Shown here: one piece after another, positions 28,984 to 42,503 of the stretch | How positions within the stretch are numbered: position 1 is the stretch's first letter | How the letters are laid out: every line of letters starts with the position of its first letter | Origin: Escherichia coli | Lineage (GTDB): Bacteria; Pseudomonadota; Gammaproteobacteria; Enterobacterales; Enterobacteriaceae | Direction: 5' to 3' (one strand) | Assembly (NCBI RefSeq): GCF_050920415.1 | Contig: NZ_CP169309.1 | Length of the DNA: 64,000 bases | Made by a program: the position numbers and the translations under genes | The notes under the pieces: model-generated | Seen by the model: the letters and a program-made list of their open reading frames with translations, nothing else | Databases searched by the model: none | What the model was told of the DNA's origin: nothing

Positions 28984-31900
28984 TTAATCAAACAATGATT
29001 CAATGTCGTTAATCAGCTCGCTGGCGGTGATGTCGTCGAGCATGGAAAAAGTAAGTAAAGGTTGTTTACCGTAGCGATCATCTGGCGAGGTGATTTTTAC
29101 GCTTTCAACAGGTAACAGGTCGCCATAACCTGTTTCACCATAAATTAATGAAAAATGTTCTGTTTCAAGTTCGAGATCGCCATAAGGGGTAGATTTGCGC
29201 ATCGCATAGACGCTGCCGCTTTCTTCCAGACGTTGCCAGCCTCGGCGCTCTAGCCCGACAATACGTCCGGCCTGACAGAGCTGTCCTTGCCAGCGTGTCA
29301 GGTCGTGGGTATTCCGTTCATTATCAGCAAGACGATAACTACCACGATCGAGCTGTTGGAAGGGGGGAAGCAGTTCGTAATCAGCGTAAATTTGCCTGAA
29401 TGCAGCGGCAGATTCAGGGGGGATCTCCAGCACATGCGGTATACCGATGTTTCCTGCTGGCAGCGTGAATAACTCATCCTGCGCATCGCTGTAAGTGCTG
29501 TCTTCTGCGACCCGGAAGCAGGCAATCAGCGTGTTTTCCTCAGTATATACTCCCCATAACAGCCGTCGGGTTAAGTGACGTACCAGCGGATGCTCCACCA
29601 GAAACAGGCGGAACTGTTCTGCCGTCCAGCGTCTGCGCTGGCACATAGCCTGCTCCAGACGATCAATCTGCTGACTGGCAATGGCGCGCACATCTTTCTT
29701 CAATTGTTTGAAGAGGTTAACGGCGTCAGTTGCCAGTGTTTTATCATCGCTCTGATTTGGTTTGGGTAAATCTTTCAGGACTTTGCCGTTTGCATCGCGC
29801 ACTACAGGTTTTAAGGTTTCGTCAAAAACAACGGTGAATTGACGTGGGCCGAAATCCAGTATCAGCGAGCCACTGCTATCAAGCCCTAAATCTGGAGCCA
29901 GGCGGTCTTCCAGTTCAGCCATAGTCAGCCCACGGTTTTCAGCAACTATGTTGATTTTCTCGCGGGCATGTTCCTGTAATGCAACGAATTTAATCTTTTT
30001 CGCAATGCCATTAAGCAGCATTAGCGCAACATCGCTGCCAATATCAGCTAATACATCCAACCCGGACACCGCCCGTTTATGCTGTGATTCCCCAGGCCAG
30101 GCACGGATAAGCGGGGTTAATTTACGCGCGGTGTCGTCATTGCCTAAAATCCCCAGCGAAGTAAATGCCCAGTTTTCTTTTGCGGGTGCGCCAGCTTCTG
30201 TCCAGGCGGTATACAGATCCCAGCCAAAGTCAGCCAGTGATTCGCGAGTGAAGGTTTCTTTGATGATCTCCAGCCCAGCGTAGGCGGTAATGTCGCGAGG
30301 AAAGCTCAGCATAGTGCCCAGGTGGCGCATAGCGTCATCTGGTAGAGGCAGGTTGTTACTTTTAAGCCGTGGTCTGCGCCATAAGGTGAACTGATAAAAG
30401 CCGGGCAGTGGGGCGATTTTTGCGGGATATTCTTCCAGAGGATCGCTATCAAATAATGTTGCCAGCGCAGCTAAAACATCAGGTTGATTATATCCTTGCG
30501 CGATTTTCTCAATCGTTTCTCGCTGGTTTAATTTCACTAGCAGTCGGAGCGCCTGGCGGGCATATTCCCGATTTTGGCACGGTTTGCCCAGCGCCAAAGG
30601 CAGTAGCCCGGCGGCGGCATGGCGCGGGTTATTTGCCAGCCAATTAACGGCATCCTTGTAAGCCATTTTTTTCTGTAACCGCTGCGCCATTGGTAAGGCT
30701 AGTTCACTGGCCCCAATAAAGAGGGTGAATATCCACAGTCGTTGATGATCTCGTTGCAAGCAGGTCATAAACGCAGGAATGGCCGTACTACCAAAAACTG
30801 CCAGAATCTCTTTCTCACCTGAATATCGCTCCTCAATGATTATTTGGTTGAGAAATGAAATCGCCTGTTGTCCCGGTAAGTAACAAAGCGCAGATAAATT
30901 CCAGCTTTTGTTGGCATTGTTGTGATATTTCGCAAACTCAGCTTTTAGTGCTGGAAAATCAAAGCGCAACAAGGCATCAACAGCGCTTTGCGGTATGTGT
31001 TTTTTTTCATGTAAGTCATCTTCGCAATGCAGCCATTCATTAAAACCTAATTGCCAAAGGATTTGTTGTTCTGGTGTAAAAGGAATGAAAGATGTCTCCC
31101 AGCTTTCTTTTTCAATTAGTGGTAGGTCGGTAAATAAGGTTTGCTGTGATGCCTGATATTTCGCGATTTCACTGAATCTGGATATGTCAGTGTGACTGAT
31201 TAACTCTGTAATTCCAGGTGTGATGTCAGTGACGGAAGGGATGGGAAGTACCGGTAAATCAAATACGGGTATTACATTCTTTTTCTTATTTATTGCCCAC
31301 GGTGGAGCGACAAGCAGCTCTGGCAACATATCCGCAGTGGCATACTCATATTCTTCAGCTACTGACTGAGGACGACATTCAGATAAGATGCCTGCCGCTT
31401 TAGCATTAACCCAGGGAATGACGTCGCGTACTAATTCTGGCGTGACGGTAATCAGTTTGACAAGCGCTTTACGCCACTCTTTGTCTTCATGTATTGCCAG
31501 CAAAGTAGCATAAGCGGCAATAGCCGCAGCGGGATGTTTTTGGCAGGCTTTGCTTAAGTATTCCAGGTGCTTTTTCTTGCCATTTACACCGAGGATCAGA
31601 ATTTGAATCGCATCCGGGTGATTCGTTTTCCATAGCCATTTGACAAGATCTTCAGTCTCGCTGATGCGCTCGAAGAGATAAGTGGGATTGTCAGAATGCT
31701 CTTCCACAAACTCAGTAAGTATCCGGCTTACACCGCGCCCCCCATTATTTGCCAGCAACATTGCCAGATAAGCGCGAAAATCACGATACAACGGTGGGAA
31801 GTCGTATTTTTCTGCTGTAGTCAGAGCTATATCATCGGTTACTACCAGTCTTAACCAGGTTATCGCCGGAACGTTTTGGTCTGCATAATGTAGCGCCATA

Positions 31901-32781
31901 GCATTGGCAATATCCGGGCGTTCAGGGAGCAGTAACGCGGCAAAAGGTTGCCGTGCTGGGGATAGCGTCGGAATAGCAGTAAGCACTTTATCCACACAGC
32001 GTTGCCACTCATCTTCTGAAGCGAGTGAAAGATGATGACATAGACGTTGATGCCAACTCGGTAGCGATTCTGCTTCGTGATTAGGTGGAATGATGGTGGT
32101 TACTGCGCCTTTTACTGGTTTATATTTGAGTTGAAGAGCGAGAAGGGCGATTTCAACGGCACTTTCCAGACCACAGCGAATGACTAAGTCATCGACCAGT
32201 TCATCTTGAGAGTAAGAGTTCCAAAAGCCCCAGAGCAATGCTGCATCAGATTGCGCACTCCCTGTCGGTTGATTACCCTGAACTCGCATTTGTAACTCAG
32301 CAAAAGCCTGCTGCCAGTTTTCTGGATAAGAGCGGTAATTATTGTCGGGGTCATATGCCCTCGTGTTATTCGCGATGCGCTTCCATATTTGGCCATCTTT
32401 GTGCAGATAATTGATATCTCTGGGGCGAGAGCGATGTGGAAAAGCAAATCGGTTAATATCGTCGGTTAGCGGAATGGCTGCATCATCAGCCAGCCATGGG
32501 CGTTTGTTTTTACTCTCAGGTGAAGTTTCAACGTCAGGAGTGACTTTGGTGACGGGGGGGATATGCACGTTTGCCGAAGCGTCTTCCACATAGCCTTTTT
32601 TCGTTTTCTCAGCGATAAGCTTCAGTTCCGCTTTTTCCGCCGCCGCAGCATCCGCAAAGCTTTTTATCTGGCTTTGCCCTTGGGTGCCAACTTTTCCCCA
32701 ACTGATATGCAACTCGTTACCTTGCTGCTCCACCGCCCAGAATTTATGTGATTTTTCGTCCTGATAGATATAACTCTTCAT
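28984..32781 (-). CDS. second MolR-family paralog with N-terminal WGR-like domain
   Basis: 1265-aa ORF; first ~65 aa and last ~25 aa nearly identical to the 25177..28971 paralog, central region diverged. Confidence 0.8.
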   Translation of the reverse strand: MKSYIYQDEKSHKFWAVEQQGNELHISWGKVGTQGQSQIKSFADAAAAEKAELKLIAEKTKKGYVEDASANVHIPPVTKVTPDVETSPESKNKRPWLADDAAIPLTDDINRFAFPHRSRPRDINYLHKDGQIWKRIANNTRAYDPDNNYRSYPENWQQAFAELQMRVQGNQPTGSAQSDAALLWGFWNSYSQDELVDDLVIRCGLESAVEIALLALQLKYKPVKGAVTTIIPPNHEAESLPSWHQRLCHHLSLASEDEWQRCVDKVLTAIPTLSPARQPFAALLLPERPDIANAMALHYADQNVPAITWLRLVVTDDIALTTAEKYDFPPLYRDFRAYLAMLLANNGGRGVSRILTEFVEEHSDNPTYLFERISETEDLVKWLWKTNHPDAIQILILGVNGKKKHLEYLSKACQKHPAAAIAAYATLLAIHEDKEWRKALVKLITVTPELVRDVIPWVNAKAAGILSECRPQSVAEEYEYATADMLPELLVAPPWAINKKKNVIPVFDLPVLPIPSVTDITPGITELISHTDISRFSEIAKYQASQQTLFTDLPLIEKESWETSFIPFTPEQQILWQLGFNEWLHCEDDLHEKKHIPQSAVDALLRFDFPALKAEFAKYHNNANKSWNLSALCYLPGQQAISFLNQIIIEERYSGEKEILAVFGSTAIPAFMTCLQRDHQRLWIFTLFIGASELALPMAQRLQKKMAYKDAVNWLANNPRHAAAGLLPLALGKPCQNREYARQALRLLVKLNQRETIEKIAQGYNQPDVLAALATLFDSDPLEEYPAKIAPLPGFYQFTLWRRPRLKSNNLPLPDDAMRHLGTMLSFPRDITAYAGLEIIKETFTRESLADFGWDLYTAWTEAGAPAKENWAFTSLGILGNDDTARKLTPLIRAWPGESQHKRAVSGLDVLADIGSDVALMLLNGIAKKIKFVALQEHAREKINIVAENRGLTMAELEDRLAPDLGLDSSGSLILDFGPRQFTVVFDETLKPVVRDANGKVLKDLPKPNQSDDKTLATDAVNLFKQLKKDVRAIASQQIDRLEQAMCQRRRWTAEQFRLFLVEHPLVRHLTRRLLWGVYTEENTLIACFRVAEDSTYSDAQDELFTLPAGNIGIPHVLEIPPESAAAFRQIYADYELLPPFQQLDRGSYRLADNERNTHDLTRWQGQLCQAGRIVGLERRGWQRLEESGSVYAMRKSTPYGDLELETEHFSLIYGETGYGDLLPVESVKITSPDDRYGKQPLLTFSMLDDITASELINDIESLFD

Positions 32782-34955: not shown

Positions 34956-35086
34956 AGTAGGCATTACTTCTTAATAGTGAAAAGGGGTTAGATAGTACCA
35001 AATGGGAAAATGTTAAGTAAGTACTTCTCTATATTCTTCAGGTAAACTATCAGCTGATGGTTTATCTATACAAAAAAGGAGTCGGG

Positions 35087-36196
35087 ATGAACGAACAATC
35101 CCAGGCCAAATCACCAGAAGCCTTGCGCGCAATGGTCGCCGGGACACTGGCCAATTTTCAGCACCCAACCCTGAAGCATAACCTCACCACGCTGAAAGCG
35201 TTGCACCATGTCGCCTGGATGGACGACACGTTGCATGTGGAACTGGTTATGCCATTCGTCTGGCATAGCGCGTTCGAAGAGTTAAAAGAGCAATGTAGCG
35301 CTGAACTGCTGCGCATCACCGGGGCGAAAGCTATCGACTGGAAACTGTCGCACAATATCGCCACCTTAAAACGCGTGAAGAATCAGCCGGGAATTAACGG
35401 CGTGAAGAACATCATTGCGGTCAGCTCCGGTAAAGGCGGCGTGGGTAAATCCTCCACGGCGGTAAATCTGGCGCTGGCACTGGCGGCGGAAGGGGCGAAA
35501 GTCGGCATTCTGGACGCCGATATCTACGGCCCATCAATACCCACCATGCTGGGCGCAGAAAATCAGCGTCCAACTTCGCCGGACGGTACCCATATGGCAC
35601 CGATTATGTCTCATGGACTGGCAACCAATTCAATTGGTTATCTGGTCACTGACGACAATGCGATGGTGTGGCGTGGTCCGATGGCGAGCAAGGCGTTAAT
35701 GCAGATGTTGCAGGAAACCTTGTGGCCGGATCTCGACTATCTGGTGCTTGATATGCCGCCAGGCACCGGTGACATTCAATTGACACTGGCACAAAACATT
35801 CCAGTAACTGGCGCGGTAGTGGTCACCACCCCGCAGGACATTGCGTTGATCGATGCGAAAAAAGGCATTGTGATGTTCGAGAAAGTCGAGGTTCCGGTGC
35901 TCGGTATTGTCGAGAACATGAGCGTGCATATTTGCAGTAACTGTGGTCACCATGAACCGATTTTCGGTACCGGTGGTGCAGAGAAACTGGCCGAGAAATA
36001 CCACACGCAGTTGCTGGGGCAGATGCCGTTACACATCTCCTTACGTGAAGATCTCGATAAAGGCACGCCAACGGTTATCAGCCGTCCGGAGAGCGAATTT
36101 ACCGCTATCTACCGCCAGCTGGCTGACCGCGTTGCAGCCCAGCTTTATTGGCAGGGAGAAGTCATTCCTGGCGAGATTTCCTTCCGCGCGGTCTGA
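35087..36196 (+). CDS. apbC: Fe-S cluster carrier ATPase (Mrp/ApbC)
   Basis: ORF 35057..36196; start at ATG 35087 with AGGAG SD; 369 aa; P-loop GKGGVGKS; divergent from metG. Confidence 0.9.
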   Translation: MNEQSQAKSPEALRAMVAGTLANFQHPTLKHNLTTLKALHHVAWMDDTLHVELVMPFVWHSAFEELKEQCSAELLRITGAKAIDWKLSHNIATLKRVKNQPGINGVKNIIAVSSGKGGVGKSSTAVNLALALAAEGAKVGILDADIYGPSIPTMLGAENQRPTSPDGTHMAPIMSHGLATNSIGYLVTDDNAMVWRGPMASKALMQMLQETLWPDLDYLVLDMPPGTGDIQLTLAQNIPVTGAVVVTTPQDIALIDAKKGIVMFEKVEVPVLGIVENMSVHICSNCGHHEPIFGTGGAEKLAEKYHTQLLGQMPLHISLREDLDKGTPTVISRPESEFTAIYRQLADRVAAQLYWQGEVIPGEISFRAV

Positions 36197-36225
36197 CGCG
36201 TATTAACCTTTTTGGTTGTTTTTCG

Positions 36226-36268
36226 TACACCGCAGAGATGTTACATTGATGCGGTGTATTTGTTTTTG
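36226..36268 (+). terminator. apbC terminator
   Basis: Stem tacaccgca / tgcggtgta followed by tttgtttttg. Confidence 0.55.
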
Positions 36269-36458
36269 CCGCATTAATGAACACTTATTTAATGCTGCGA
36301 ATATTCTGCGGACCTTCGTCCGAAACTCTATAAAGTCGATTGATCGTACAGGCAATGCTTCATTATCATCCTTCGTGGCTGTGTAGTGGATGTACAGCTA
36401 TAGTTTGTTATGCACTCATTCTATCCAGGCATAACCTTTACTACAGGGATAACGTTCA

Positions 36459-36740
36459 ATGAATAAGTACTGGCTGTCAGGAATTATTTTTCTTGCCTAT
36501 GGAATGGCTTCTCCCGCGTTCTCTTCACAGACTGCCACATTAACGATTAATGGCAGGATCAGTCCCCCAACATGCAGTATGGCTATGGTTAATGGTCAAC
36601 CTCAACAGCATTGTGGTCAGTTAACGTATGATGTTGATACCCGTCATCAGGTTTCTTCGCCAGTCAAAGGTGTGACGACAGAAGTGGTTGTTGCAGGTAG
36701 CGATAGCAAACGTCGAATCGTGTTAAATCGCTACGATTAA
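36459..36740 (+). CDS. yehE: small secreted protein (DUF2574)
   Basis: 93 aa with signal peptide; position upstream of the yeh fimbrial operon as in K-12. Confidence 0.75.
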   Translation: MNKYWLSGIIFLAYGMASPAFSSQTATLTINGRISPPTCSMAMVNGQPQQHCGQLTYDVDTRHQVSSPVKGVTTEVVVAGSDSKRRIVLNRYD

Positions 36741-36771
36741 TTTGCCACCCTAGTTCTTTAAGCGGATTTAG

Positions 36772-36814
36772 AAAGCTGAAATCATTCGCGTGAATGATTT
36801 CAGCTTTTTTATTG
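36772..36814 (+). terminator. yehE rho-independent terminator
   Basis: 16-bp stem aaagctgaaatcattc / gaatgatttcagcttt followed by ttttttatt. Confidence 0.7.
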
Positions 36815-37035
36815 ATATTAATAATACCATTTAAAAAAATCTGCATTAATTAATAGATGTGATAAATATTTAATATGCTTAAGTATTTGTTGTATTTATA
36901 TTGCAATGGTTAATTTGTTTTAAATCAATAAAACAATATGTTTACATTGCGGCAACTTTTTTGATGTGAGAAATTTGTTTCCAAGAGATACAGACTCTTA
37001 ACAACCAAAAAATAAATTTTATTAAGGAACATATT

Positions 37036-37578
37036 ATGAAACGTTCAATTATTGCTGCCGCTGTCTTTTCTTCTTTTTTTATGAGCGCTGGGGTATTTGC
37101 CGCAGACGTTGATACCGGAACATTAACCATTAAAGGGAATATTGCAGAATCTCCGTGTAAATTCGAAGCGGGTGGCGATTCAGTAAGTATTAATATGCCA
37201 ACTGTACCAACCACTGTCTTTGAAGGTAAAGCTAAATACTCGACCTATGATGATGCAGTCGGTGTAACCAGCAGCATGTTAAAAATTAGCTGTCCGAAAG
37301 AAGTTGCTGGTGTAAAACTCTCGTTGATTACCAACGATAAAATAACCGGAAACGATAAGGCGATAGCCAGTAGCAACGATACCGTGGGGTACTATCTCTA
37401 TTTAGGTGATAACAGCGATGTCCTGGATGTTTCTGCACCTTTTAACATTGAAAGTTATAAAACAGCGGAAGGTCAATATGCCATTCCGTTTAAAGCGAAA
37501 TATCTGAAACTGACAGATAACTCAGTGCAATCAGCTGATGTGTTATCTTCTCTGGTTATGCGTGTGGCGCAGGATTAA
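37036..37578 (+). CDS. yehD: fimbrial major subunit (chaperone-usher)
   Basis: 180 aa, signal peptide, fimbrillin-like size; first gene of yehDCBA. Confidence 0.85.
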   Translation: MKRSIIAAAVFSSFFMSAGVFAADVDTGTLTIKGNIAESPCKFEAGGDSVSINMPTVPTTVFEGKAKYSTYDDAVGVTSSMLKISCPKEVAGVKLSLITNDKITGNDKAIASSNDTVGYYLYLGDNSDVLDVSAPFNIESYKTAEGQYAIPFKAKYLKLTDNSVQSADVLSSLVMRVAQD

Positions 37579-37614
37579 TAAATAAAATTTCAAATTTCCC
37601 CAGGTAATAAACAT

Positions 37615-37640
37615 GGCCGCTATCCCCATGGCGGCCTTTT
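37615..37640 (+). terminator. intra-operon attenuator hairpin between major subunit and chaperone
   Basis: Stem ggccgc / gcggcc with 10-nt loop followed by tttt; a common arrangement after fimbrial major-subunit genes. Confidence 0.35.
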
Positions 37641-37658
37641 AATTTAAGAGGCATTAAG

Positions 37659-38333
37659 ATGAAAGGATTATTAGCTTTACTTATTTCTTCTATGGTCCTT
37701 CCTGCGCATGCCGGAATTGTTATCTACGGGACGCGCATTATTTACCCGGCAGAAAATAAAGAAGTGATGGTGCAGTTGATGAACCAGGGAAACCGTTCTT
37801 CGCTGCTGCAGGCGTGGATTGATGATGGCGATACGTCGTTACCACCAGAAAAAATTCAGGTTCCTTTCATGTTAACGCCACCAGTGGCAAAAATAGGGGC
37901 AAATTCCGGGCAGCAAGTAAAAATCAAAATTATGTCGAATAAACTGCCCACTAATAAAGAGAGCATTTTTTATCTGAATGTTCTGGATATTCCACCAAAT
38001 AGTCCAGAGCAAGAGGGCAAGAATGCACTGAAATTTGCAATGCAAAACAGAATCAAATTGTTTTACCGGCCTGCGGGTATTGCACCGGTAAATAAAGCGA
38101 CATTTAAAAAGTTACTGGTAAATCGCAGTGGCAATGGATTGGTGATAAAAAATGACTCAGCAAATTGGGTAACGATTTCGGATGTCAAAGCTAATAATGT
38201 TAAAGTCAATTATGAAACTATCATGATTGCACCATTGGAAAGTCAGAGTGTTAATGTCAAAACTAATAATGCGAATAGCTGGCATCTGACCATTATCGAT
38301 GACCATGGCAACTATATTAGTGACAAAATTTAA
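37659..38333 (+). CDS. yehC: periplasmic fimbrial chaperone
   Basis: 224 aa; signal peptide MKGLLALLISSMVLPAHA; no in-frame start upstream (stop at 37608). Confidence 0.85.
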   Translation: MKGLLALLISSMVLPAHAGIVIYGTRIIYPAENKEVMVQLMNQGNRSSLLQAWIDDGDTSLPPEKIQVPFMLTPPVAKIGANSGQQVKIKIMSNKLPTNKESIFYLNVLDIPPNSPEQEGKNALKFAMQNRIKLFYRPAGIAPVNKATFKKLLVNRSGNGLVIKNDSANWVTISDVKANNVKVNYETIMIAPLESQSVNVKTNNANSWHLTIIDDHGNYISDKI

Positions 38334-38348
38334 TTGCAGGAGCTACCT

Positions 38349-40829
38349 ATGTTGAGAATGACCCCACTTGCATCAGCAATCGTAGCGTTATTGCTTGGCA
38401 TTGAAGCTTATGCAGCTGAAGAAACTTTTGATACTCATTTTATGATAGGTGGAATGAAAGACCAGCAGGTTGCAAATATTCGTCTTGATGATAATCAACC
38501 CTTGCCAGGGCAGTATGAAATCGATATTTATGTCAATAAGCAATGGCGAGGGAAATACGAGGTTATCGTTAAAGATAATCACGAAGAAACATGCCTGGAA
38601 AGGGAAATTATAAAGCGATTGGGTATTAATACCGATAACTTTGCCAGCGGTAAGCAATGTTTAACATTTGAGCAACTTGTTCACGGTGGGAGCTATACCT
38701 GGGATATCGGAGTTTTTCGTCTCGATTTCAGTGTACCGCAGGCGTGGGTGGAAGAACTGGAAAGTGGCTATGTTCCACCGGAAAACTGGGAGCGGGGTAT
38801 TAATGCGTTTTATACCTCTTATTATGTGAGTCAGTATTACAGCGACTATAAAGCGTCGGGTAATAGCAAGAGTACATATGTACGTTTTAACAGCGGGTTA
38901 AACTTACTGGGGTGGCAACTGCATTCTGATGCCAGTTTAAGTAAAACAAATAGCAATCCAGGGGTGTGGAAAAGCAATACCCTGTATCTGGAACGTGGAT
39001 TTGCCCAACTTCTCGGCACGCTTCGCGTGGGTGATATGTACACATCAAGCGATATTTTTGATTCTGTTCGCTTCAGCGGTGTGCGGTTGTTTCGTGATAT
39101 GCAGATGTTGCCTAACTCGAAACAAAATTTTACTCCACGGGTGCAGGGGATTGCTCAGAGTAACGCGCTGGTAACTATTGAACAGAACGGTTTTGTGGTT
39201 TATCAGAAAGAGGTTCCTCCTGGCCCGTTTGCGATTACAGATTTGCAGTTGGCCGGTGGTGGAGCAGATCTTGATGTCAGCGTGAAAGAGGCGGACGGTT
39301 CGGTAACCACCTATCTGGTGCCTTATGCAGCAGTGCCGAATATGCTGCAACCCGGCGTGTCGAAATATGATTTTGCGGCAGGTCGTAGCCATATTGAAGG
39401 GGCGAGCAAACAAAGTGATTTTGTTCAGGCGGGTTATCAGTATGGTTTTAATAACTTATTGACGCTGTATGGCGGATCGATGGTCGCGAATAATTATTAC
39501 GCGTTCACTTTGGGGACTGGCTGGAATACACGCATTGGTGCCATTTCCGTCGATGCCACGAAGTCGCATAGTAAACAAGACAACGGCGATGTGTTTGACG
39601 GGCAAAGTTATCAAATTGCCTACAACAAATTTGTGAGCCAAACGTCGACGCGTTTTGGTCTGGCGGCCTGGCGTTATTCGTCGCGTGATTACCGGACATT
39701 TAACGATCACGTTTGGGCAAACAATAAAGATAATTATCGCCGTGATGAAAACGATATCTATGACATTGCCGATTATTACCAGAACGATTTTGGCCGTAAA
39801 AATAGCTTTTCTGCCAATATGAGCCAGTCATTGCCAGAAGGCTGGGGTTCTGTGTCCTTAAGTACGTTATGGCGAGATTACTGGGGGCGTAGCGGCAGCA
39901 GTAAGGATTATCAGTTGAGTTATTCCAACAACCTGCGACGGATAAGCTATACCCTCGCGGCAAGCCAGGCTTATGACGAGAATCATCATGAAGAGAAACG
40001 TTTTAATATTTTTATATCGATTCCCTTTGATTGGGGTGATGACGTTACGACGCCTCGTCGGCAAATATATATGTCTAACTCAACGACGTTTGATGATCAG
40101 GGTTTTGCCTCAAATAATACGGGATTATCGGGAACCGTTGGAAGCCGGGATCAATTTAACTATGGGGTCAACTTAAGTCATCAGCATCAGGGAAATGAAA
40201 CGACAGCTGGAGCGAATTTAACCTGGAACGCGCCGGTGGCAACGGTGAATGGCAGTTATAGTCAGTCGAGTACTTATCGACAGGCTGGAGCCAGTCTTTC
40301 AGGGGGCATTGTCGCCTGGTCGGGTGGCGTTAATCTGGCGAACCGTCTTTCCGAAACGTTTGCTGTGATGAATGCGCCAGGAATTAAAGATGCTTATGTC
40401 AATGGGCAAAAATATCGCACAACAAACCGTAATGGAGTGGTGGTATACGATGGAATGACACCTTATCGGGAAAATCACCTGATGCTGGATGTGTCGCAAA
40501 GCGATAGCGAAGCAGAATTACGTGGCAACCGGAACATTGCCGCCCCTTTTCGCGGCGCGGTTGTACTGGTTAATTTTGATACCGATCAGCGCAAGCCCTG
40601 GTTTATAAAAGCGTTAAGAACGGATGGGCAACCATTAACGTTTGGTTATGAAGTCAATGATATCCACGGTCACAATATTGGCGTTGTCGGCCAGGGAAGC
40701 CAGTTATTTATTCGCACCAATGAAGTACCGCCATCGGTTAATGTAGCAATTGATAAGCAACAAGGGCTTTCATGCACAATCACCTTCGGTAAAGAGATTG
40801 ATGAAAGTAGAAATTATATTTGCCAGTAA
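38349..40829 (+). CDS. yehB: outer-membrane fimbrial usher
   Basis: ORF 38334..40829; start at ATG 38349 with AGGAG SD (MLRMTPLASAIVALLLG...), 826 aa. Confidence 0.9.
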   Translation: MLRMTPLASAIVALLLGIEAYAAEETFDTHFMIGGMKDQQVANIRLDDNQPLPGQYEIDIYVNKQWRGKYEVIVKDNHEETCLEREIIKRLGINTDNFASGKQCLTFEQLVHGGSYTWDIGVFRLDFSVPQAWVEELESGYVPPENWERGINAFYTSYYVSQYYSDYKASGNSKSTYVRFNSGLNLLGWQLHSDASLSKTNSNPGVWKSNTLYLERGFAQLLGTLRVGDMYTSSDIFDSVRFSGVRLFRDMQMLPNSKQNFTPRVQGIAQSNALVTIEQNGFVVYQKEVPPGPFAITDLQLAGGGADLDVSVKEADGSVTTYLVPYAAVPNMLQPGVSKYDFAAGRSHIEGASKQSDFVQAGYQYGFNNLLTLYGGSMVANNYYAFTLGTGWNTRIGAISVDATKSHSKQDNGDVFDGQSYQIAYNKFVSQTSTRFGLAAWRYSSRDYRTFNDHVWANNKDNYRRDENDIYDIADYYQNDFGRKNSFSANMSQSLPEGWGSVSLSTLWRDYWGRSGSSKDYQLSYSNNLRRISYTLAASQAYDENHHEEKRFNIFISIPFDWGDDVTTPRRQIYMSNSTTFDDQGFASNNTGLSGTVGSRDQFNYGVNLSHQHQGNETTAGANLTWNAPVATVNGSYSQSSTYRQAGASLSGGIVAWSGGVNLANRLSETFAVMNAPGIKDAYVNGQKYRTTNRNGVVVYDGMTPYRENHLMLDVSQSDSEAELRGNRNIAAPFRGAVVLVNFDTDQRKPWFIKALRTDGQPLTFGYEVNDIHGHNIGVVGQGSQLFIRTNEVPPSVNVAIDKQQGLSCTITFGKEIDESRNYICQ

Positions 40830-40844
40830 TAGTCAGGTGGTTCT

Positions 40845-41879
40845 ATGAAAATTCGCATAATGCTATTTATATTAACGATGATGGTTATGCCTGTGAGCTA
40901 TGCAGCATGTTATAGTGAGTTATCTGTTCAGCACAATTTGATTGTTCAGGGGGATTTTGCACTTACTCAAACACAAACGGCGACATATGAGCATAATTTC
41001 AACGATTCATCATGTGTGAGTACAAATACCATCACTCCCATGAATTCATCGGATATTATTGTTGGGCTGTATAACGATACAATTAAATTAAATTTACATT
41101 TTGAATGGACCAATAAAAACAACATCACGTTGTCAAATAATCAGACCAGTTTCACTAATGGTTATTCGGTAACGGTGACACCTGCGGCCAGTAATGCAAA
41201 AGTGAATGTTTCTGCGGGGGGCGGCGGTTCAGTGATGATTAATGGTGTTGCGACATTATCCAGTGCTTCATCATCGACACGCGGGAGTGCTGCAGTACAA
41301 TTTTTACTGTGTTTATTCGGTGGCAAGTCATGGGATGCATGTGTAAATAGCTACAGAAATGCATTGGCACAAAATGCAGGTGTCTATTCCTTTAATCTGA
41401 CATTGTCATACAACCCGATAACCACAACCTGCAAACCGGACGATTTATTAATTACTTTAGAGAGTATTCCCGTTTCACAATTACCAGCTACAGGTAACAA
41501 AGCAACAATAAATAGTAACAAAGGGGATATTGTTCTGCGTTGTAAAAACTTATTAGGTCAACAAAATCAAACATCACGGAAAATGCAGGTGTATTTATCA
41601 AGTTCTGACTTGTTAACCAACAGCAACACAATACTGAAAGGTGCGGAAGATAATGGCGTAGGATTTATTCTTGAAAGTAATGGTTCTCCAGTCACACTTT
41701 TAAATATCACTAACAGCAGTAAAGAATACACAAATTTAAAAGAAATTGCGGCAAAGTCAAAACTTACAGATACAACGGTTTCAATTCCGATAACTGCCAG
41801 TTACTACGTCTACGATACAAATAAAATTAAATCTGGCGCACTGGAGGCAACCGCATTAATCAACGTGAAATACGACTAA
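40845..41879 (+). CDS. yehA: fimbrial tip adhesin-like subunit
   Basis: 344 aa with signal peptide; last gene of the fimbrial operon. Confidence 0.85.
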   Translation: MKIRIMLFILTMMVMPVSYAACYSELSVQHNLIVQGDFALTQTQTATYEHNFNDSSCVSTNTITPMNSSDIIVGLYNDTIKLNLHFEWTNKNNITLSNNQTSFTNGYSVTVTPAASNAKVNVSAGGGGSVMINGVATLSSASSSTRGSAAVQFLLCLFGGKSWDACVNSYRNALAQNAGVYSFNLTLSYNPITTTCKPDDLLITLESIPVSQLPATGNKATINSNKGDIVLRCKNLLGQQNQTSRKMQVYLSSSDLLTNSNTILKGAEDNGVGFILESNGSPVTLLNITNSSKEYTNLKEIAAKSKLTDTTVSIPITASYYVYDTNKIKSGALEATALINVKYD

Positions 41880-41935
41880 TAACAAGCAAGACGAGCAAGT
41901 GGCTAATAATAAAAAATAACAAGGTGTCTGCATTT

Positions 41936-41962
41936 CCCCCTCATGATGAGGGGGCTTTTTTT
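41936..41962 (+). terminator. yeh fimbrial operon terminator
   Basis: Stem ccccctca / tgaggggg followed by cttttttt. Confidence 0.7.
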
Positions 41963-42299
41963 AGCGATGATAAAAAATCTCACCATCGTAGGCTTTAATG
42001 ATTTTACCGTCGGTGTCGCTGATCAACACGTACGCGCCACCCATATAGGTCCAGTGCGTCCCGGCATCAGGCGCGGGCAGGTTACGTAACTGCCACTGCT
42101 TAATGTTGTACTCATCGGTGCGGTACATCTCTGGGACGGTATCGCCTGGTTTGAAATGCTTAAAGTCAGCAATGAAACTGCTTAACTCATACTTAGAAAT
42201 TCCCGAGGTATTGGTCGAACCCGCGGTGGCTGGTGCGGCCCAGGCGGCACTGGTAACCAGCAAAAGCACACCCAGCAACATCTTATTTTTAATGGTCAT
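41961..42299 (-). CDS. rcnB: periplasmic modulator of Ni/Co efflux
   Basis: ORF 41961..42479; start at ATG 42299 (MTIKNKMLLGVLLLVTSAAWA...), 112 aa; downstream of rcnA. Confidence 0.85.
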   Translation of the reverse strand: MTIKNKMLLGVLLLVTSAAWAAPATAGSTNTSGISKYELSSFIADFKHFKPGDTVPEMYRTDEYNIKQWQLRNLPAPDAGTHWTYMGGAYVLISDTDGKIIKAYDGEIFYHR

Positions 42300-42503
42300 A
42301 AACTCTCCACTTTGGGGATCTGTAATATCAGTCGCATATCTTTCCTGCCATACAATATAACTGACAAGCGATATTTTGTTAGTGATCCCATGATTTCGTA
42401 AAAAGTGTAAATGAAAGGATGCCCTAAAAGCATCCTTAGCGAGCAGAGAGCCAGCGGAAATAGCTGATTTAAGAATCATCCTGGGCTGAAGATAACATGC
42501 AGC

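Follow-up and report, generated by a model that had tools for sequence, protein, structure and literature searches.

The AT-rich region upstream of the yehDCBA fimbrial operon in Escherichia coli: a yehE terminator, a variable spacer and a probable conserved promoter/operator core

Introduction

The closest described counterpart of the region studied here is the yehD/yehE intergenic region of Escherichia coli K-12 MG1655 (promoter island 2190229_357), which is orthologous to it and lies in the same gene order. The K-12 region appears among 78 “promoter islands”, a class that the Ozoline group defines by an abnormally high density of promoter-like sites, and it was bound by H-NS in two ChIP data sets (PMC3661553 Table 1), those of Kahramanoglou and Oshima as tabulated in that paper. 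The yehDCBA operon is listed in the H-NS regulon, and its expression rose 3.6-fold upon SlyA overproduction (PMC5797941); the same paper, citing Korea et al. 2010, describes yeh as cryptic and H-NS-repressed. The region was also flagged as a genomic island in K-12 (PMC5797941, PMC3661553), and the locus was placed within a static extended protein-occupancy domain (EPOD) (PMC12266141). Loss of protein occupancy alone did not induce yehDCBA (PMC12266141), indicating that H-NS is not the whole story.

Several other regulators act on the operon. ArcA was reported to directly repress yehDCBA in K-12, on the basis of a ChIP-seq peak and a 12.3-bit box, and an arcA mutant showed 5.4-fold derepression; the peak at yehD was present in only one of two replicates, and the score of the box was modest (PMC3798270). 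YehD was also an ArcA target in genomic SELEX (PMC6134199). In EHEC, CsrA bound the yehD 5′UTR in a GG-dependent manner, as demonstrated by EMSA, and ethanolamine raised YehD (PMC11287998), while overproduction of BolA raised yehD and yehC (PMC4337573). In O157:H7, yeh promoter fusions were expressed, and more strongly at 28 C (Low et al. 2006, cited in PMC7098969). Within E. coli, the Yeh fimbriae are core-associated and were intact in 92% of surveyed strains; they are orthologous to Salmonella Stc, which occupies the same chromosomal position (PMC3559732). The entry for yehDCBA in the tables of Park et al. 2013 reads “no TSS” (PMC3798270), and the transcription start of Salmonella stc is likewise unknown (PMC5137417).

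Comparable regions are found elsewhere in K-12. The upstream regions of yadN, sfmA, elfA/ycb, ybgD, yfcV and yraH are likewise AT-rich, H-NS-bound promoter islands located before major-subunit genes, and, like yeh, these cryptic fimbrial promoters give low expression in the laboratory, which SlyA or BolA increases. Unlike them, yeh carries an ArcA site supported by ChIP as well as a CsrA site, and it is ancestral to Escherichia, Salmonella (as stc) and Citrobacter at the same chromosomal position. The fimS switch and the pap Dam/Lrp switch are also AT-rich, H-NS-influenced regions upstream of fimbrial major-subunit genes, as at yeh.

The region, its binding by H-NS and its ArcA, CsrA and SlyA inputs are thus already known from K-12 and EHEC orthologues, and our finding is an ordinary one, as all of its essentials have been described there. 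What we add is the anatomy of the interval (terminator, neutral spacer and conserved core), the observation that no other non-coding block is conserved as well across three genera as the published ArcA site, and a promoter prediction for the operon that is concrete enough to be tested. The anatomy, the ArcA footprint and the promoter model could aid the search for the natural inducing condition of Yeh/Stc fimbriae.

Materials and Methods

We analyzed a 64-kb stretch of an E. coli chromosome, referred to as the window. Gene order was read from the annotated nearest genome, K-12 and an O157-type strain. Fifteen orthologous loci were found by searching genome contigs with YehB as the query; they came from Escherichia species, E. 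albertii, E. whittamii, several Citrobacter species and Salmonella enterica subsp. arizonae. An alignment of the 15 orthologues (alignment A2) and its conservation profile gave the four-part division of the interval. The neutral benchmark was the identity at 4-fold degenerate sites of apbC, which was 48-55% to Citrobacter/Salmonella. The K-12 ArcA site was taken from the supplementary tables of Park et al. 2013 (PMC3798270) and mapped as the reverse complement. All 15 orthologues were scanned for promoter candidates with a rough sigma-70 PWM.

Results and Discussion

Locus and Base Composition

The interval at 36741-37035 was exactly the yehE-yehD intergenic region of the E. coli chromosome, within the gene order DUF4132 gene, metG, apbC, yehE, yehD, yehC, yehB, yehA, rcnB, rcnA. 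A 1301-nt query spanning yehE, the intergenic region and yehD matched 5413 of 5426 complete E. coli genomes by megablast, where the features are annotated yehE, yehD and yehC, and the same query was 94.9% identical to K-12. The genes around the interval were as follows:

36459-36740, + strand: yehE, 93 aa, Pfam DUF2574 (E=1.4e-51), from the ORF and RefSeq annotation; ends at the left edge of the interval
37036-37578, + strand: yehD, major fimbrial subunit, 180 aa, Pfam Fimbrial
37659-38333, + strand: yehC, chaperone, 224 aa, Pfam PapD_N and PapD_C
38349-40829, + strand: yehB, usher, 826 aa, Pfam Usher, PapC_N and PapC_C
40845-41879, + strand: yehA, two-domain adhesin-like subunit, 344 aa, Pfam Fimbrial (C-terminal domain)

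The initial annotation had described an intact operon with an 826-aa usher and a 344-aa tip-adhesin-like subunit, and both the Pfam roles and the CDS lengths agreed with that description. A major subunit, a PapD-like chaperone, an usher and an adhesin-like subunit were all present in intact frames, and as their lengths equaled those of the RefSeq CDSs of K-12 and the nearest genome, yehDCBA was free of frameshifts.

The interval had a GC content of 0.251, compared with 0.501 for the whole window, an AT content far above average and of the kind seen at H-NS-silenced promoter regions. It was the lowest-GC 295-nt stretch of the 64 kb; only 0.1% of 295-nt windows were as low, all of them in the same trough, and this trough was the only one with a 295-nt GC of 0.30 or below. 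The two AT-rich strings quoted in the initial annotation were located at 36805-36826 and 36886-36921, and its description of about 300 AT-rich bp upstream of yehD was borne out at a level far from chance. Orthologous intergenic regions were similar in all 15 loci, measuring 277-295 nt with a GC of 0.24-0.32 wherever both flanking genes could be placed. The K-12 region was 292 nt (295 nt in this strain) with a GC of 0.243 (0.251 here), and the intergenic region alone was 91.4% identical between the two, with the differences clustered in the yehE terminator stem, where they were compensatory, and in the variable spacer. The four parts of the interval and the elements within them were as follows:

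36770-36809, + strand: intrinsic terminator of yehE, 18-bp stem, 4-nt loop and T-run (terminator scan)
36812-36883, no strand: variable AT-rich spacer, 41-53% identical to Citrobacter/Salmonella
36884-37005, + strand: conserved regulatory core, with TATTTGTTG, TATATTG, TTGTTTTAAATCAAnAAAACAA, GTTTACATTGCGGnAAC and TGTGnGAAtTT (alignment A2)
36916-36958, - strand: ArcA~P site, direct repeats 11 bp apart; 42 of 43 nt equal K-12 site 2190321-2190363
36947-36975, + strand: candidate yehD promoter, -35 TTGCGG at 36947-36952, 17-bp spacer, TG at 36967-36968, -10 GAAATT at 36970-36975
36983-36999, + strand: small hairpin AAGAG-N7-CTCTT, where the yehD mRNA is predicted to begin
37024-37029, + strand: Shine-Dalgarno AAGGAA, which includes the GGA bound by CsrA in EHEC

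We consider it quite probable that the interval comprises the yehE terminator, an AT-rich spacer, a conserved promoter/operator core and the RBS, and that it is silenced by H-NS, repressed by ArcA and subject to further inputs.

Terminator of yehE

A stable hairpin followed by a T-run stood right after the yehE stop codon. The repeat search found a 16-nt perfect inverted repeat in it, its MFE was -24.2 kcal/mol (z = -5.1), and a T6 at 36805-36810 overlapped the 3′ end of the stem. Among the 15 orthologues, 92% of cells in the stem were paired and five pairs changed on both sides; this covariation was matched by none of 500 shuffles, and slid registers did not come close either. The compensatory changes indicated that this is a real RNA hairpin, a predicted Rho-independent terminator maintained across genera. 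Within it, the inner stem and the 3′ side of the loop (36778-36801, ATCATT...TGAATGAT) were nearly invariant in three genera, while the outer stem covaried freely. The initial annotation had assigned all of the roughly 300 nt to the regulation of yehD, but roughly the first quarter (about 70 of 295 nt) is taken up by the terminator of yehE.

The terminator bears on where transcription of yehD begins. It is conceivable that yehD has no promoter of its own and that yehEDCBA is transcribed from upstream of yehE, with the intergenic region serving mainly for attenuation or processing. The operon was written “yehEDCBA” in one study (PMC12266141), an O157 Sakai expression construct included yehE (PMC7098969), and our scan found a promoter-like site upstream of yehE at 36340-36369. 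Nevertheless, an 18-bp terminator with a T-run directly follows yehE and shows compensatory changes across genera, and it precedes both the ArcA site and the conserved core. Promoter fusions of yehD were active in O157, as cited in PMC7098969, and the ArcA, SlyA and EHEC studies take yehD as the first gene (PMC3798270, PMC5797941, PMC11287998). Transcription from upstream of yehE as the sole source of the yehD message is therefore unlikely in our judgment, and we favor a separate yehD promoter, which the terminator would shield from transcription coming from upstream.

Variable Spacer and Conserved Core

Downstream of the terminator, the spacer at 36812-36883 was AT-rich in all taxa and differed by up to about 40% even among E. 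coli alleles. Compared with the neutral benchmark, its sequence diverged at about the neutral rate, and it is likely to be bulk DNA for H-NS binding. The core of about 120 bp that follows was 89-98% identical within Escherichia (98% to K-12; 96% in the O157-type allele) and 70-82% identical to Citrobacter/Salmonella, compared with 48-55% for neutral sites, a difference indicating that purifying selection acts on it. YehE was about 50% identical across the non-Escherichia loci that kept the core at 70-82%. The order apbC-yehE-yehD-yehC-yehB was kept in nearly all of the 15 loci.

The most conserved stretch of about 40 nt in alignment A2, with a mean pairwise identity of 0.88-0.92, was the ArcA site at 36916-36958. 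The direct repeats 11 bp apart that define an ArcA box at a promoter were present in the sequence, and binding is transferred from K-12. As the published ArcA site coincides with the most conserved stretch, the core is not merely AT-rich and carries a specific operator, which, judging from the alignment, has been kept since the common ancestor of Escherichia, Citrobacter and Salmonella. Readings of the dyad TTGTTTTA-N6-TAAAACAA as a site for FNR, CRP, IHF or TyrR had been made by eye only and were dropped for the published ArcA assignment.

These results also bear on the proposal that horizontal acquisition, together with a terminator, left the AT-richness as a mere compositional relic, with incidental H-NS binding and no specific regulatory architecture. 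The whole yeh cluster has a GC of 0.38-0.45, compared with 0.52-0.54 for metG and apbC, the genomic-island flag in K-12 points the same way, and the neutral evolution of the spacer would be expected of such a relic. However, a relic would not account for a core that is conserved far above the neutral rate, that coincides with a ChIP-mapped ArcA site, and that is kept better than the adjacent YehD, which was only 33-38% identical to the YehD of the window in five of seven Citrobacter loci and in Salmonella arizonae. We regard the relic explanation as quite improbable and retain the reading of the core as a promoter/operator. YehD was 59-64% identical in two other loci, Citrobacter sp. Res13 (L011) and Enterobacteriaceae bacterium UBA5654 (L014).

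Across these non-Escherichia loci (L009-L018), the usher was 72-83% and the chaperone 61-76% identical. Lower identity of YehD than of the usher and chaperone is the usual pattern for diversifying surface antigens.

Candidate Promoter and Transcript Start

The TTGCGG-17-TGnGAAATT candidate ranked first in both score and conservation in the PWM scan over the 15 orthologues. Its -10 (GAAATT) was weak, and its -35 fell inside the ArcA site, an arrangement shared with most ArcA-repressed promoters. A minus-strand candidate, TTGCCG-17-TTTATT, scored about equally, and for this reason the promoter prediction in the core is not decisive. A simple sigma-70 consensus scan found two promoter-like sites, compared with 5.4 in shuffles; the one inside the interval (36812-36840) was rejected, as it sits in the non-conserved spacer. 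Transcription from the plus-strand candidate would, by hypothesis, start at about 36982-36984, at the foot of the AAGAG-N7-CTCTT hairpin. In this hairpin 93% of cells were paired among the 15 orthologues, and three pairs changed on both sides, each in a single sequence, which amounts to weak covariation.

We tentatively propose, with less than even confidence, that the core is a dedicated promoter/operator module (TTGCGG-17-TGnGAAATT, with the -35 in the ArcA site and the start at the 5′ hairpin) that was kept across three genera while YehD diversified. In that case, expression of the “cryptic” Yeh/Stc fimbriae would be gated by oxygen instead of being simply silenced, and the start of the yehD transcript would become directly testable.

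The conservation of the core, unusually high for non-coding DNA, could alternatively mean that it encodes a small RNA or a leader peptide instead of binding proteins, and the minus-strand candidate does point towards the yehE hairpin, which is two-sided. That candidate, however, has a -10 without the essential A at position 2, the mini-ORFs MVNLF* and MFTLRQLF* lose their start codons in Citrobacter (by reading of alignment A2), and the known ArcA site already explains the core. A scan of 35000-42500 against Rfam gave two chance-level matches only, and hence no known RNA family was present. An encoded RNA or peptide is highly improbable in our view, and protein-binding DNA remains the preferred reading of the core.

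H-NS Silencing and Other Inputs

The initial annotation had proposed an H-NS-silenced, cryptic fimbrial promoter. Silencing by H-NS is reported for K-12 from ChIP and genetics, and the regulon data agree, so the proposal is supported there; for this strain we infer it by analogy. A single two-mismatch match to the high-affinity H-NS motif TCGATAAATT was found in this strain, which is uninformative either way. The published K-12 occupancy and repression uphold H-NS control, but not H-NS as the sole regulator, since ArcA, CsrA, SlyA, BolA and ethanolamine act too. “Cryptic” likewise fits the K-12 laboratory description but not O157:H7, where the cited promoter fusions were expressed.

At the RBS, ATTAAGGAA was kept in 14 of 15 orthologues; Citrobacter sp. 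HRGM has a single substitution (ATTCAGGAA).

The inputs proposed for this strain are carried over from K-12 or O157. H-NS would coat the AT-rich DNA together with the low-GC operon that follows, keeping the promoter silent in laboratory culture. Under anaerobiosis, ArcA~P would bind the direct repeats in the core and repress the operon about fivefold, as in K-12, probably by covering the -35 of the weak extended -10 promoter. SlyA-type antagonists, BolA, ethanolamine signaling and low temperature would raise yeh expression, and CsrA would bind the GGA at the yehD Shine-Dalgarno.

Comparison with Phase-Variation Switches

Many fimbrial operons are phase-variable, and the region could in principle switch as well, by inversion of a fim-like element or by pap-like Dam/Lrp methylation. 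A perfect inverted repeat of 10 nt (I18, 36905-36914 and 37122-37131) might be taken to favor the former. Its right arm, however, lies inside the yehD coding sequence, the O157 allele already fails to conserve its left arm, and by a rough estimate 900 nt of DNA this AT-rich should contain about one such pair of 10-mers by chance; the repeat was rejected as a switch. The repeat search found chance-level pairs only and no convincing flanking inverted repeats of the fimS type, in agreement with the initial impression that no invertible element was present. No recombinase gene was found between apbC and rcnB in the annotated nearest, K-12 and O157-type genomes. The interval 36741-37035 contained no GATC site, whereas a pap-type switch has two about 100 bp apart. 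The yeh region thus differs from fimS and pap in having no flanking inverted repeats, no gene for a FimB/FimE-like recombinase and no GATC pair, and a phase-variation switch is so improbable here as to be nearly negligible.

Hairpin after yehD

A further structure lies between the major-subunit and chaperone genes:

37615-37636, + strand: GC-rich hairpin between yehD and yehC, 9-bp stem, followed by TTTTAATTTA

Each of the 15 orthologues had a GC-rich hairpin of 7-11 bp here, the hairpin sequences being unrelated, which indicated that the structure is conserved and real. It had been called an attenuator; the hairpin exists as described, but the attenuator role is inferential, as a U-tract is missing in the O157-type allele as well as in the loci of Citrobacter and Salmonella. 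Stem-loops after the major-subunit gene occur in pap, fim and other fimbrial operons and are the basis of the analogy drawn here. The yeh hairpin resembles those of pap and fim in being GC-rich and in lying between the major-subunit and chaperone genes, and differs from them in that its U-tract is weak or absent in many alleles. By this analogy, it would probably set the ratio of major subunit to assembly proteins, through partial termination or by stabilizing a processed yehD mRNA.

Other Observations at the Locus

The N-terminus of YehE (signal peptide plus TLTINGRISPPTC) resembled that of YehD (TLTIKGNIAESPC; the 5′ part of yehD is 37036-37180), and the DUF2574 model matched YehD residues 1-44 weakly (E=8e-4, below the cut-off). 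Beyond this short resemblance, the idea that YehE is a truncated fimbrial subunit found no support, with E=0.5 against YehD in BLASTP and no Pfam Fimbrial match at E<=10. By its sequence, YehE may be a short subunit-like remnant.

A match of at least 99% to the yehE-yehD query was found in only 8 of the 5413 genomes. A second yehE-intergenic-yehD allele (window 36400-37700; loci L003 and L006), about 80% identical, was carried by about 300 O157-type E. coli genomes. Its intergenic region was nearly identical to that of Escherichia sp. E1V33, which suggested allele exchange between lineages. In Enterobacteriaceae bacterium UBA5654, a yehE homologue lay on the strand opposite yehD (about 1908-2177), and apbC was not found within the 4-kb flank, the exception among all loci.

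The protein encoded by apbC (35087-36196) was 100% identical to that of K-12, while the 4-fold degenerate sites were only 86% identical. This synonymous divergence is high for one species and suggests that the segment came from a divergent E. coli lineage. The DUF4132 (molR-like) gene at 28984-32781 on the - strand was an intact ORF of 1265 aa here and in the nearest genome, and is annotated as a pseudogene (frameshift or internal stop) in K-12 and in the O157-type strain F3398.
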